Shown piece by piece: positions 56-5,350 of a stretch of 5,350 nt of DNA. A program made the translations under genes and the position numbers. Source of the DNA: a virus (Duplodnaviria; Heunggongvirae; Uroviricota; Caudoviricetes); IMG/VR virus record IMGVR_UViG_2734482540_000012. One strand, written 5' to 3'. Within the stretch, counting starts at the first letter, position 1, and the number at the start of each line of letters is the position of its first letter. The notes under the pieces are model-generated. The model was not told the DNA's origin. It made no database searches and was given only the letters and a program-made list of their open reading frames with translations.

Positions 56-244
56 TTAAAAAAAGAACAAATGGTAGTGTCCGCTATTGCCAGTACACCT
101 CAGGGTATAAGGGGTTATGGCCACCGGACTACCAAACGGCTGCCAGCCCTCTTTCAGTTTATGTGTCAGCTTTTCCGCAAGATCTGACGGCGGCGCCGCC
201 CTGACAACATCATAGTGTTTAAATGCCATGGTTCTTTCCACCAT
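56..244 (-). CDS. small hypothetical protein, phage-associated (KEGWQPFG core; possibly DUF1737-like, family name from memory)
   Basis: Minus-strand ORF with in-frame ATGs at 244 and 229. The ATG at 229 (MAFKHYDVV...) follows GGTGGAAAGA, a possible weak SD, so the true start may be 229. Central motif ...KLKEGWQPFGSPVAI... resembles small prophage proteins I recall; no search possible. Confidence 0.4.
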   Translation of the reverse strand: MVERTMAFKHYDVVRAAPPSDLAEKLTHKLKEGWQPFGSPVAITPYTLRCTGNSGHYHLFFF

Positions 245-489
245 CTGAAAAATAATTCTTTAAAATACCTGACATGTAATACAGAAAAAACACAAAACCA
301 TACCTTAAATAAAAACCTGATTATCAAGCAGATATGCATGGATAAACTACAAGACGAGATATAAACCACCCTGCATTTAAATAAACAATAAACAACATCA
401 GAAAAATAATTCTGCTCTATGGTTTACATTCAAAAATATCATTTATACTTTTCAGAACATCACCAGCAAGGCATAAACAAGGAAACTAA

Positions 490-825
490 ATGAAGTGGAT
501 TGTGATTGATACAGTTATCCAGCCATCATGCGGAATATCTTTTTCAGTCATATGGAGTAAAATAAAATTAATAATCTGGTATCAATCGGATGCTTTCTTA
601 CCTCCTGAAAGTATATTTACACTGACTCACACAGGCATCATGCTCAATAACAAAGTGCTACCTGTAACCATTTACAACGTAGTACCATTCAATAAAACAT
701 TCTGGAATTCAATCAAAAATAGCCAGGAATGCCCTACAAATACAGATAACGTATTGAATGAATGCTTTAATAACCGTTGCACTCTGCAAATATGTCCTTA
801 TGGACTAAAACAACAAAGTCCATAA
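490..825 (+). CDS. hypothetical protein, AT-rich orphan, Cys-rich C-terminus
   Basis: ATG at 490 preceded by AAGGA (479-483) with a 6-nt spacer. 111 codons in visibly low-GC sequence, including 6 ATA codons. Four Cys in the last ~30 residues ([26 protein letters not shown]). Possible sigma70-like elements upstream (TTTACA at about 425-430). No family recognised. Confidence 0.4.
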
Positions 826-860
826 GGAGTTTACTCACATCTGACAAAATCAATATAAAC

Positions 861-880
861 AGCCCCTCCGGAGAGGGGCT
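861..880 (-). terminator. GC-rich hairpin (8-bp stem AGCCCCTC/GAGGGGCT, 4-nt loop); candidate minus-strand intrinsic terminator
   Basis: Perfect 8-bp stem seen directly. On the minus strand it is followed by GTTTATATTGATTTTG (T-rich). On the plus strand it is followed by GGAGAGTGGCGC (no T-tract), so termination is plausible only for leftward transcription. Confidence 0.3.
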
Positions 881-1272
881 GGAGAGTGGCGCTATGTGCC
901 ATTGCATGGTGCCGGGTGCCTCCCGGTGAATTCAGTACCAGCACCTGAATCCGCGATTATCCCATATACCTACTCGCTGATTGCCCCTCCGCACAGGGGG
1001 ATTCACCATGCCAGTTTCTTTTAACAAACTCCCCGCAAACCAGACAACAGTCAACCGCCTGAATTGTGAAGTATTTAAAAATTTCTCCCGCTAACTGATA
1101 CCCGGCTAACAGTCTGGCGTTTTCTTTTTCAGCAACGGGAAAGCAACAACCACCACACCCGCCACCAGCACACCGTCAGCCAGCACTGACATTATCCGGC
1201 TGCTGCAATGCCATTCACAAAAACAGTAAGCAATCACTTTTTACCGTAACAGGTGATAATCCAGATATGTAT

Positions 1273-1599
1273 CTACCCCAGATGAGTAATCCGAAGTTCA
1301 TCCATACCACAGGTCCTGGCTATTCTGTTGTACTCCTGAACAAGAGCAAATAATTCTGAATTAGCAACCATGAACTCATCGCAAACCCTCTGTATAGCAT
1401 CACTATTCAGAATAATAACGTCTCTTCCCGAAAGACGATCAGGAGTACAGAACAAAACTGTCAAACGGCTGAAGGCCTTTGCTCGTGCTGCATTGACTAT
1501 ATCAATACGCTGCCTAAGGATGAAACACCCCGACGCCTCATCAATATTCACTCTACCCACACCATATGAATGATAAATATTTAATGCTGAAAAAACCAT
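1273..1599 (-). CDS. hypothetical protein in the cargo position downstream of the phage tRNAs
   Basis: Minus-strand ORF; the track's longest form starts at a TTG (1626), first ATG is at 1599 (MVFSALNIYHSYG...). No convincing SD. 108 codons from the ATG include 3 AGA, 3 AGG and 3 ATA. Could be a remnant or non-coding; no family recognised. Confidence 0.35.
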   Translation of the reverse strand: MVFSALNIYHSYGVGRVNIDEASGCFILRQRIDIVNAARAKAFSRLTVLFCTPDRLSGRDVIILNSDAIQRVCDEFMVANSELFALVQEYNRIARTCGMDELRITHLG

Positions 1600-1736
1600 T
1601 AGACCGTATAACAAACACTCAATCAATACTTAACAGAACTTTTATTTTTGACAAACATAAAATATTTTCAACAATATCCTGAGCCAGGTATATTTCAGTA
1701 TAAGGCTCTGCCGGAAGGAATCTGGAAGAATGAATA

Positions 1737-1813
1737 TGGCGCGCTGTACTGGATTCGAACCAGTGACCGATTGCTTAGAAGGCAATTGCTCTGTCCGGCT
1801 GAGCTAACAACGC
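1737..1813 (-). tRNA. tRNA-Arg (anticodon UCU), CCA encoded
   Basis: Reverse complement reads GCGTTGT-TA-GCTC-AGCCGGACA-GAGC-A-ATTGC-CTTCTAA-GCAAT-CGGTC-ACTGG-TTCGAAT-CCAGT-ACAGCGC-G-CCA. 7-bp acceptor stem (one G.U), 4-bp D stem, 5-bp anticodon stem, loop CTTCTAA gives anticodon TCT, canonical TTCGAAT T-loop, encoded CCA. Resembles E. coli argU as I recall it; argN/argO-type phage tRNA. Confidence 0.9.
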
Positions 1814-1913
1814 TGAATACCGATAATGGACCGCCATCGGGGACCCGCCCCCGCACCAACAACCCTGTTATCGTGTCGTCTGCTCTTCCTGATAAGCTAA
1901 TGGCGGTTTGTGA

Positions 1914-1989
1914 TGGTGGCCCTTGCTGGATTTGAACCAGCGACCTGGCGATTATGAGTCGCTCGCTCTCACCACTGAGCTAAAGGGCC
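1914..1989 (-). tRNA. tRNA with CAU anticodon, most likely tRNA-Ile2 (lysidine, ileX/ileZ-like) rather than tRNA-Met
   Basis: Reverse complement reads GGCCCTT-TA-GCTC-AGTGGTGA-GAGC-G-AGCGA-CTCATAA-TCGCC-AGGTC-GCTGG-TTCAAAT-CCAGC-AAGGGCC-A-CCA. Full cloverleaf with one A.C mismatch at 27:43. Anticodon CAT. Very close to the E. coli ileX sequence as I recall it, and Stx-type lambdoid phages carry ileZ here. Ile versus Met cannot be settled from the anticodon alone. Confidence 0.85.
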
Positions 1990-2024: not shown

Positions 2025-2052
2025 CAATAAAAAACCCGCTCGGCGGCGGGTT
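2025..2052 (-). terminator. rho-independent terminator downstream of the Q-like gene (tR'-like)
   Basis: Minus-strand RNA would be AACCCGC-CGCCGA-GCGGG followed by UUUUUUAUUG. GC stem pairs 2035-2039 with 2046-2050 (extendable by two A.U pairs), and a 6-U run is encoded by plus-strand A's 2029-2034. Lies about 40 nt after the Q stop and about 35 nt before the tRNA-Ile 5' end. Confidence 0.55.
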
Positions 2053-2091: not shown

Positions 2092-2946
2092 TTATGACGA
2101 ATTTACCACAGATTCCGGAAAAATCAACCTAGTTACCTTTTTTAACTGCCGCTCAGCCCATGCTTCTTCAATATCAAACCGAGTCACCAGCGCATCATAG
2201 AATTTCTTAACTGTTTTTTCCCATGACGCGCGTGTTATCTGGTTTGTCACCTCGCATATAGCATTAAATGCCTCCGTTGATGGTAGTCTTTCATAGCCAC
2301 GACCACCACAACGCTGGCAGTCTCTGATAACAGGCATACCACGTTTTACCGACTCTTCACGATGAATGGCGACACCACGCCCACGGCAATCCTTACAGGC
2401 GGTGGAAACCTCACCCTTTCCGCCACACTCCGGACAGGCAACTTTTACCACCTCCCTGACTTTTTTCCATTCTTCCCAGTAAGACGGATACACACCTTTC
2501 GTACACTTTGCCCATACCGGCGGCTTACCATCCGGATACTGGACCTTGTTTGTAAAAACTACGCTTTCAATAAATTTTTCCCCATAGCAACAAGGGCACT
2601 GCTTTTTACTCGCTGCGCTGCGGGCATAATCCTCAAAAGCGTACGAAGCCATAATGCGCATCACTACCGGTTTTATTTCTGCCGGAAGTTTTCTCAACGC
2701 CGCCACACGATCGCACCGACTGAGTGCATAATCTGCCAGTAATTCTGTTGCCCGCGCCCTGTCATTCATACTGATGCCCATTTTCCCCAGGAACGCAGAA
2801 AACCCCATCTCAGCCCGATTCTGTGTCATGCCCTGCGCGGCCATCACATCAGTGATACTCAGCGCATCTTTTGACGTTGAGGCCGATGCATCGGTCAGGC
2901 AAGGGGATTTTGGGGAGTAGTATTTCGGTAAATCTTCCAGTTTCAT
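2092..2946 (-). CDS. putative late antiterminator Q-family protein with DnaJ-type CxxCxGxG zinc-finger repeats
   Basis: 284-aa ORF. Its ATG overlaps the rusA stop (ATGA). It sits immediately downstream of rusA and upstream of terminator and phage tRNAs, the canonical Q position. Contains CPCCYGEK, CPECGGKG, CKDCRGRG and CQRCGGRG. Family assignment from context and memory, no search. Confidence 0.7.
   Translation of the reverse strand: MKLEDLPKYYSPKSPCLTDASASTSKDALSITDVMAAQGMTQNRAEMGFSAFLGKMGISMNDRARATELLADYALSRCDRVAALRKLPAEIKPVVMRIMASYAFEDYARSAASKKQCPCCYGEKFIESVVFTNKVQYPDGKPPVWAKCTKGVYPSYWEEWKKVREVVKVACPECGGKGEVSTACKDCRGRGVAIHREESVKRGMPVIRDCQRCGGRGYERLPSTEAFNAICEVTNQITRASWEKTVKKFYDALVTRFDIEEAWAERQLKKVTRLIFPESVVNSS
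2100..2127 (-). promoter_or_regulatory. candidate late promoter (pR'-like) overlapping the 3' end of the Q-like gene
   Basis: Minus-strand TTGATT (plus 2122-2127), 16-nt spacer, TAAATT (plus 2100-2105). A start near the Q stop codon would give a short roughly 50-60 nt transcript ending at the 2025-2052 terminator, analogous to lambdoid pR'-qut-tR'. Pattern match only. Confidence 0.2.
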
Positions 2947-3694: not shown

Positions 3695-3850
3695 TAGACT
3701 GGCCCCCTGAATCTCCAGACAACCAGTATCACTTAAATAAGTGATAGTCTTAATACTAGTTTTTAGACTAGTCATTGGAGTACAGATGATTGATGTCTTA
3801 GGGCCGGAGAAACGCAGACGGCGTACCACACAGGAAAAGATCGCAATTGT
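3695..3850 (+). mobile_element. IS2 left-end fragment (positions 1-156 of IS2, including IRL and the first 21 codons of insC)
   Basis: Begins TAGACTGGCCCCCTGAATCTCC, the IS2 left terminus as I recall it. All 156 bp are identical to 4361..4516 in this window. Identity stops abruptly after GCAATTGT at 3850. Confidence 0.85.
3786..3850 (+). pseudogene. insC: insC remnant (first ~21 codons of IS2 OrfA, then read-through into IS21-family sequence)
   Basis: ATG at 3786 is at the same offset (+91) from the IS2 terminus as the insC ATG at 4452 in the second copy. Encodes [22 protein letters not shown], then diverges. Confidence 0.6.
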
Positions 3851-4394
<544 letters not shown>

Positions 4395-4451
4395 TCACTT
4401 AAATAAGTGATAGTCTTAATACTAGTTTTTAGACTAGTCATTGGAGTACAG

Positions 4452-4817
4452 ATGATTGATGTCTTAGGGCCGGAGAAACGCAGACGGCGTACCACACAGG
4501 AAAAGATCGCAATTGTTCAGCAGAGCTTTGAACCGGGGATGACGGTCTCCCTCGTTGCCCGGCAACATGGTGTAGCAGCCAGCCAGTTATTTCTCTGGCG
4601 TAAGCAATACCAGGAAGGAAGTCTTACTGCTGTCGCCGCCGGAGAACAGGTTGTTCCTGCCTCTGAACTTGCTGCCGCCATGAAGCAGATTAAAGAACTC
4701 CAGCGCCTGCTCGGCAAGAAAACGATGGAAAATGAACTCCTCAAAGAAGCCGTTGAATATGGACGGGCAAAAAAGTGGATAGCGCACGCGCCCTTATTGC
4801 CCGGGGATGGGGAGTAA
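4452..4817 (+). CDS. insC: IS2 transposase OrfA (InsC), helix-turn-helix DNA-binding component
   Basis: ATG at 4452 ([41 protein letters not shown]...), stop TAA at 4815-4817. Matches IS2 InsC from memory. The ORF track begins earlier at an in-frame GTG (4407). Confidence 0.9.
4769..4775 (+). other. A AAA AAG slippery heptamer: programmed -1 ribosomal frameshift site giving the OrfAB (InsCD) fusion transposase
   Basis: AAAAAAG at 4769-4775 near the end of insC, where the insD frame opens (GTG at 4775). A6G motifs are the established frameshift signal of IS3-family elements. Confidence 0.6.
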
Positions 4818-5289
4818 GCTTAGTCAGCCGTTGTCTCCGGGTGTCGCGTGCGCAGTTGCACGTCATTCTCAGACGAACCGATGACTGGATGGATGGCCGC
4901 CGCAGTCGTCACACTGATGATACGGATGTGCTTCTCCGTATACACCATGTTATCGGAGAGCTGCCCACGTATGGTTATCGTCGGGTATGGGCGCTGCTTC
5001 GCAGACAGGCAGAACTTGATGGTATGCCTGCGATCAATGCCAAACATGTTTACCGGATCATGCGCCAGAATGCGCTGTTGCTTGAGCGAAAACCTGCTGT
5101 ACCGCCATCGAAACGGGCACATACAGGCAGAGTGGCCGTGAAAGAAAGCAATCAGCGATGGTGCTCTGACGGGTTCGAGTTCTGCTGTGATAACGGAGAG
5201 AGACTGCGTGTCACGTTCGCGCTGGACTGCTGTGATCGTGAGGCACTGCACTGGGCGGTGACTATCGGCGGCTTCAACAGTGAAACAGT
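4775..5289 (+). pseudogene. insD: IS2 transposase OrfB (InsD), 3'-truncated (about 171 of about 301 codons retained)
   Basis: Frame encodes [21 protein letters not shown]...[22 protein letters not shown] (track shows M at the GTG), then leaves IS2 at 5289 and ends SAPVI-stop at 5308. The InsD region downstream of ...NSETV (in my recollection of IS2, continuing ...QDVMLGAVERRF... and the DDE catalytic region) is absent from the window. Confidence 0.85.
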
Positions 5290-5350
5290 GTCAGCGCCAG
5301 TGATATAAGACGGTAATTCGCCATTTGGATTGTCCGCTCCACCCAACATG

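Follow-up and report, generated by a model that had tools for sequence, protein, structure and literature searches.

The iraL locus of a lambda-like prophage, in the slot that stx holds in Stx phages

IraL entered the literature in 2014, when Hryckowian et al. characterised in Escherichia coli CFT073 a paralogue of IraM, 58.9% identical to it and encoded on the potB island (PMC4045071). In CFT073 and in Shigella sonnei, of which an iraL mutant was also tested, the protein binds the adaptor RssB and keeps sigma-S stable during log phase; its contact with RssB differs from that of IraM (PMC4045071). The CFT073 gene has a mapped sigma-70-type start that is active in uninduced log-phase cells. Stress is what induces the other characterised anti-adaptors; IraL works in log phase without it (PMC4045071). 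A second described system comes from the Stx phages, in which stx2 occupies the same slot position, directly upstream of a copy of the small RNA STnc100 (PMC12370729). This copy, 75 nt downstream of stx2B, overlaps the Hfq-binding sRNA EcOnc27/sRNA103, as reported (PMC12370729, PMC12711010). STnc100 itself is a multi-copy prophage sRNA family, with eleven transcribed copies in strain EDL933, one of them verified by Northern blot (PMC5331693). A 2026 preprint relates it to the PasD sRNAs and finds that STnc100 matches often flank Pas sRNA genes, in prophages as well as in sequenced phages (bioRxiv 10.64898/2026.05.13.724894).

The DNA considered here, called the window throughout, is a phage-derived stretch of 5,350 nucleotides. 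Its block 245-1736 belongs to a lambda-like prophage and is the iraL locus described earlier, ordinary rather than new. In all probability it represents the cargo (moron) segment of a prophage of the lambdoid phi-potB type, built from four elements in two transcriptional orientations, and nothing contradicts the identities of these elements. The block and its surroundings are made up as follows.

2092-2946, minus strand: Q-type late antiterminator of 284 aa (PF03589, E 7e-55; PHROG 127 and 25523, "anti-termination protein Q-like").
2033-2052, minus strand: tR'-like intrinsic terminator, located after Q and before the tRNAs; its 7-bp stem contains 5 GC pairs, and TTTTATTG follows.
1914-1989, minus strand: phage tRNA with anticodon CAT (ARAGORN; Rfam tRNA, 72.5 bits).
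1822-1906, minus strand: degenerate middle tRNA, argN-like (alignment to the middle tRNA-Arg of CFT073 and to the tRNA-Arg(TCG) of locus L002).
1737-1813, minus strand: phage tRNA-Arg (TCT) (ARAGORN; Rfam, 68 bits).
1273-1551, minus strand: orf92, 92 aa with a GTG start at 1551, PHROG 2873 (profile match, dN/dS, conserved start).
1106-1237, minus strand: DUF3927 small hydrophobic protein of 43 aa (PF13064, 95.6 bits; PHROG 1470 "TciB-like", E 8e-13).
851-1040, minus strand: prophage sRNA of the STnc100 family (RF02076, 132.4 bits, E 6e-30, model positions 1-206 of 206).
490-825, plus strand: iraL, an RssB anti-adaptor of the IraM family, 111 aa, convergent with STnc100 (NF007393; identity to CFT073).
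423-489, plus strand: putative iraL promoter and 5' UTR, with a -10-like hexamer TATACT at 444-449 and the published start at 457.
56-244, minus strand: remnant of a DUF1737 gene (PF08410, E 1.5e-15, residues 8-50).

Every phage gene in the left half of the window lies on the minus strand. The Q gene marks the start of the late region, and the hairpin that follows it would, from its position, play the part of tR'. The tRNA with anticodon CAT has an orthologue annotated as tRNA-Ile in the RefSeq records of E. coli 042 and CFT073. Its middle neighbour retains acceptor, D and T arms around a replaced anticodon arm, and is called neither by ARAGORN nor by Rfam. The block adjoins these tRNAs on one side, and on the other it is followed by DUF1737, normally the first gene ahead of the holin, which here has its C-terminal part swapped for IS600 sequence. 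In 042 and CFT073 the same order runs on past DUF1737 into holin, lysozyme and spanin genes; holin and endolysin come directly after DUF1737 in both strains, and neither is present within the window. The block therefore sits in the slot held by stx in Stx phages: like the place of a Q-dependent moron, it lies between Q, tR' and the tRNAs on one side and the lysis cassette on the other, and its content varies among relatives.

Much of this layout had been proposed in an earlier note drawn up from the letters of the window. The gene order that it gave, from Q and the terminator through the tRNAs to the block, is borne out on the minus strand by PF03589, ARAGORN, Rfam and the terminator hairpin. 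Its view of the block as a variable slot between Q/tRNAs and the lysis module agrees with the synteny of 042 and CFT073 and with the alternative cargo of relatives. It was also right to report no holin or endolysin in the block, and the two open reading frames that it listed do exist, one at 490-825 on the plus strand and the other on the minus strand, where it spans 1273-1599 from an ATG or 1273-1626 from the first TTG. The description of the block as AT-rich holds on average, with 39.3% GC against 47.2% for the window, but not evenly: GC content is 28.6-34.5% in 245-825 and 31.4% in 1552-1736, while it reaches 49% in the central part 826-1272.

The plus-strand frame is, judged by its sequence, iraL, the gene already characterised in 2014 (PMC4045071). 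With NCBIfam model NF007393 (IraM) it reaches 162 bits, above the cut-off of 121 and over residues 1-110 of 111, which places it in the family, and it matches the solved IraM chain (PDB 8TWD) at E 6e-31. Its product is 61% identical to K-12 IraM over 107 residues, and 110 of its 111 residues are identical to those of CFT073 IraL; a Shigella multispecies protein record carries exactly the sequence found here. iraL is told apart from iraM by at least 95% identity to the CFT073 gene (PMC4045071). [quoted passage not shown] The assignment of the promoter hexamers is our own reading of the letters and remains putative.

Convergent with iraL, the STnc100 gene covers its family model from end to end, at a score far above the gathering score of 47 bits. 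Its fold agrees with the family consensus (minimum free energy -74.6 kcal/mol, z -2.26), and the gene closes with an intrinsic terminator at 860-881, whose 9-bp stem includes 7 GC pairs and is followed by TTTATATT. Such a lambdoid late-region context recurs elsewhere, the RNA being found at the same position in CFT073, 042, mEp460 and JLK-2012. With this terminator the minus-strand unit ends 25 nt from the iraL stop codon. On the plus strand the hairpin on the iraL side lacks a U-tract, so that a bidirectional terminator common to the two genes is not established. The PGAP pseudo-CDS equal to window positions 896-1021 (plus strand), which overlaps STnc100 on the opposite strand, was treated as an annotation artefact. 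Some loci carry two STnc100 copies.

Directly upstream of the RNA lies the DUF3927 gene, which scores well above the Pfam cut-off of 25 bits. Its translation is 100% identical to the "DUF3927 family protein" WP_000562553.1 of CFT073 and 042. The two elements follow each other directly in the window as well as in CFT073, 042, mEp460 and JLK-2012. Each also occurs without the other, STnc100 for example after stx2B (PMC12370729) and DUF3927 at locus L014.

The remaining element, orf92, is a real gene, best read from its sequence as 92 codons beginning with the GTG at 1551. The longer frame 1273-1626 matches PHROG 2873, a family with no assigned function, at E 4e-70, and this profile match is joined by evidence from the coding frame. 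In other lambdoid prophages a second subtype, about 60-61% identical, is found with an AraC-like gene upstream of it. Compared with that subtype (locus L006), orf92 has a Nei-Gojobori dN/dS of 0.26 in its own frame, shifted frames give 1.19 and 0.86, and the differences at codon positions 1, 2 and 3 number 24, 22 and 44: the gene is under purifying selection. The GTG start is conserved in both subtypes, and the sequence upstream of it aligns poorly. Starts at the ATG 1599 or the TTG 1626 were rejected as unlikely, since the upstream alignment to the second subtype then needs indels that are not multiples of three. A longer N-terminus was likewise set aside, an IS2 inserted directly before the conserved GTG at locus L002 sparing the 92-aa frame.

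The orf92 family is a small one, with 23 clusters in a word-indexed search, and its distant relatives, at 21-43% identity, have the same length; conserved motifs are common to those at 21-40%. A profile search against 1.84 billion representative proteins returned only 21 matches, so there is no annotated distant relative from which a function could be borrowed. Pfam and NCBIfam gave nothing, and the one match among solved structures by sequence, at E 0.54, was discarded as chance. The structure predicted with AF2 is a two-helix hairpin (pLDDT 88.7). The earlier note had advised structure prediction and a fold search; the first yielded this hairpin, the second no informative match. Lambdoid late regions account for four of the eight contexts examined, namely the window type, the AraC-linked subtype, locus L011, with a tRNA and a Q gene of another family upstream of the relative, and loci L014 and L015, with TerB, DUF3927, holins and an endolysin downstream of it. 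Relatives outside lambdoid late regions are found at L012, L016, L019 and L017/L018. The gene is intact in CFT073, 042 and the phage mEp460_ev081, and is annotated neither in these three records nor in any of 12 sampled RefSeq genomes.

How widespread is this arrangement? The full block is present in 863 of 5426 complete E. coli genomes and some part of it in 2861, while the iraL segment is found in 1446 of the 5426 and orf92 DNA in 1187; conservation of the block reaches 95% or more in many hundreds of genomes. Around this common form the slot varies. In mEp460 and several E. coli genomes a TolA-like gene takes the place of iraL, and there the homology to the window begins at about 903, inside STnc100. 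The slot of JLK-2012 holds tciA (TerB-like), tciB and STnc100, then a long DUF1737 esterase-type gene; that of L006 and L007 holds an AraC-like regulator, and in Stx phages the STnc100 segment alone matches the block. These few cases fit a modular slot with STnc100 often at its joints. This recurrence at the junctions of alternative cargo agrees with recent proposals that the RNA family marks exchangeable prophage modules.

The following explanation very probably accounts for these elements. In the lysogen, iraL would be transcribed from its own sigma-70-type promoter, starting at 457. IraL would then bind RssB, which could no longer pass RpoS to ClpXP, and RpoS would accumulate during exponential growth, an effect amounting to lysogenic conversion of the host stress response. 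On the other strand, orf92, DUF3927 and STnc100 would form a unit downstream of the tRNAs, closed by the STnc100 terminator. We infer that this trio is read from pR' under Q antitermination on induction, because its members share one orientation and the stretch from 2033 to 881 has no strong terminator. A sequence scan gave no convincing sigma-70 promoter candidate for STnc100 or the trio: positions 1-2200 contain 6 promoter-like matches where 5.1 are expected from shuffled sequence, which is chance level. The letters by themselves thus lend no support to a promoter for the trio, nor do they offer a basis for judging expression in the lysogen. As there is no convincing promoter just upstream of it, STnc100 may mature from the 3' end of the DUF3927 transcript. 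More speculatively, Q-modified read-through of the STnc100 terminator might run antisense over iraL.

Could the whole block instead be stx-like cargo devoid of a promoter of its own, expressed solely from Q-antiterminated pR' on induction, and with an undescribed function? The trio lends itself to such a view, being oriented like Q and the tRNAs with no strong terminator in the way, and so does the position, which is that of stx2 upstream of an STnc100 copy and the lysis genes (PMC12370729). Yet a Q-dependent moron lies on the late-operon strand and has no promoter of its own, whereas the largest reading frame of the block, iraL, is on the opposite strand with a mapped sigma-70-type start active without induction (PMC4045071). 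Antisense to the late operon and furnished with its own promoter, iraL is therefore not expressed like stx, and the Q-driven expression put forward in the earlier note does not apply to it. With the function of iraL published and the remaining elements in catalogued families, we regard this reading as distinctly improbable. Even less probable is that the block is decaying, non-functional prophage debris, in which the reading frames are chance remnants hitch-hiking along. The prophage is certainly broken by IS600, IS2 and an IS21 fragment, its middle tRNA is degenerate, its DUF1737 gene is truncated, and orf92 goes without RefSeq annotation. But IraL is full length, one residue away from the functional CFT073 protein and behind an intact promoter region, STnc100 matches its full model with an intact terminator, and the block is conserved at 95% or more across many hundreds of genomes. 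Nor does orf92 behave as debris, with a dN/dS of 0.26 in its reading frame and of about 1 in the others, and with relatives of the same length.

A narrower alternative would make DUF3927 and STnc100 a pair resembling a type I toxin-antitoxin system, with a hydrophobic toxin under the control of the adjacent RNA. The hydrophobic 43-aa peptide and the RNA that directly follows it in all five loci named above invite the comparison. Their orientation led us to reject it: both are on the minus strand, STnc100 lying downstream of DUF3927 without overlap, hence in no antisense relation, and each of the two also exists without the other. This pairing is scarcely credible. A bolder idea, also unlikely though with somewhat more to be said for it, concerns orf92. 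With its family of some 20 clusters it might be an overlooked translated component of the late region, a dimerising helical-hairpin regulator acting on lysis timing or on a host-envelope or exclusion function, and Q read-through might moreover silence iraL on induction. orf92 is the first protein gene past the phage tRNAs, and copies in relatives precede TerB, DUF3927 and holin genes; what is shown of it is a real gene in a recurrent position. Were the idea true, read-through past the STnc100 terminator would couple RpoS stability to the state of the prophage.

The preferred account, that of a moron segment with iraL read in the lysogen and a minus-strand trio read on induction, leaves little of the novelty first suspected here. 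The earlier note had called both reading frames orphans; the matches to the IraM model and to PHROG 2873 show otherwise. Its 450-bp structured non-coding block turns out to contain the STnc100 gene and the 43-aa DUF3927 coding sequence. It expected an accessory function: one is present, that of lysogenic conversion, although iraL was published in 2014 (PMC4045071) and the function is hence not an undescribed one. Homology searches, which the note itself had named as able to undo its proposal, place the elements in known families, with orf92 alone lacking a function. As a discovery the locus thus carries little weight: the 2014 publication covered iraL together with its mechanism and this very locus, and STnc100 and DUF3927 belong to catalogued families. 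What it does illustrate is that the "stx slot" of a phi-potB-type prophage houses a gene that modulates the stress response of the host and is read against the late operon, that an apparently non-coding block can be an sRNA together with a small-protein gene, and that RefSeq leaves unannotated, in every record inspected, a 92-aa gene that is under purifying selection and occurs in about one fifth of the complete E. coli genomes.

The present copy has its own history. Positions 1 to about 100 are the end of an IS600 (1-110 match this element) that truncates DUF1737, homology to CFT073 ends at window position 100, and IS2/IS21 debris begins at 3695. The window as a whole occurs in no complete E. 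coli genome. Taken with the Shigella-type IraL, the IS debris and this absence suggest a Shigella prophage that is defective but has kept its iraL block intact. In a prophage so riddled with IS elements, Q-dependent expression of the minus-strand trio may have been lost.

Among known systems, the iraL locus of phi-potB in CFT073 shares with the window the order Q, tRNAs, unannotated orf92, DUF3927, STnc100, opposite-strand iraL and DUF1737. The two differ in that the middle tRNA-Arg and the lysis cassette of CFT073 are intact and an IS200 separates its Q gene from the tRNAs; in the window the middle tRNA has degenerated, IS600 interrupts DUF1737, and IS2/IS21 debris is found upstream of rusA. 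K-12 IraM (PDB 8TWD) belongs to the same protein family as IraL and, according to the literature, has the same target, RssB, but its gene stands in another context, beside e14 with ymgK, ymgL and ycgX. A link between K-12 iraM and the cassette was considered and dismissed, the K-12 locus being without STnc100, DUF3927 and orf92. The stx2 locus resembles the window in its succession of Q, tRNAs, cargo, an STnc100-family RNA (overlapping EcOnc27/sRNA103), nanS-p/DUF1737 and lysis genes (PMC12370729, PMC12711010); unlike it, the window has a non-toxin cargo, the main gene of which runs antisense to the late operon and does not depend on Q. In the tciA-tciB cassette of JLK-2012, DUF3927 (tciB-like) is likewise followed by STnc100 between the tRNAs and DUF1737/lysis, but TerB-like tciA stands where the window has orf92. 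The distant relative L014 brings an orf92-like gene, TerB and DUF3927 together.

Both ends of the window carry insertion sequences, which are listed here together with two further features of the stretch between them.

1-110: terminus of IS600 (IS3 family), forming the left end of the window
about 896-1021, plus strand: counterpart of a RefSeq pseudogene fragment
1822-1906, minus strand: degenerate third phage tRNA, flanked by two intact phage tRNAs
3695-5350: nested IS debris
3909-4388: C-terminal IstB (IS21) fragment, between the copies of a 156-nt direct repeat
4407-5308: IS2-like orfA/orfB, following the IstB fragment

Since homology to the CFT073 prophage ends at window position 100, the 62-aa “DUF1737” ORF is the N-terminus of DUF1737 joined to IS sequence. 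The lysis cassette of the window's prophage is displaced or lost. At the right end, the direct repeat is perfect (copies at 3695-3850 and 4361-4516) and overlaps the start of an IS2-type transposase ORF, and the integrase domain of the IS2-like pair is curtailed near 5285. In the related prophage of E. coli 042 (L001 1-4751), the large terminase gene is split by an integrase-bearing satellite-like element whose cargo comprises a DUF927 primase-type gene, DUF4222, an Icd-like gene and BRO-N.

Alignment of the degenerate tRNA shows that its acceptor, D and T arms match those of the middle tRNA-Arg of CFT073 and that its anticodon arm has been replaced; neither ARAGORN nor Rfam made a call at this position.

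Several related prophages contain two copies of STnc100, 0.3-3 kb apart and with small cargo genes between them, an arrangement suggestive of cassettes being duplicated or exchanged at this RNA. The paired loci are as follows.

L010: 4607-5264
L006: 5352-5718
L002: 2344-2556 and 5650-5839

The RefSeq records of 042 (L001 9652-9777) and CFT073 (L013 33270-33395) each list a pseudo “hypothetical protein” fragment antisense to STnc100; this is most likely an annotation artefact overlying the sRNA.

Distant members of the orf92 family also occur outside lambdoid late regions (L016, L019 and L017/L018): one is close to a pap-type fimbrial operon, another comes after type II secretion/type IV pilus genes, and a weak match (E 2e-4) lies upstream of Mu-like phage DNA-circulation and baseplate genes.

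The Q antiterminator (2092-2946, minus strand) matches a DnaJ-type CXXCXGXG zinc-finger (E 1e-6) and is 284 aa long, whereas Q of 042 and of CFT073 is shorter, at 273 aa. In CFT073, the phage tRNAs are separated from Q by an inserted IS200 with its STnc490 RNA (L013 31568-32159), which may disconnect the late region from Q; its insertion point is exactly the expected place of pR' and tR'.
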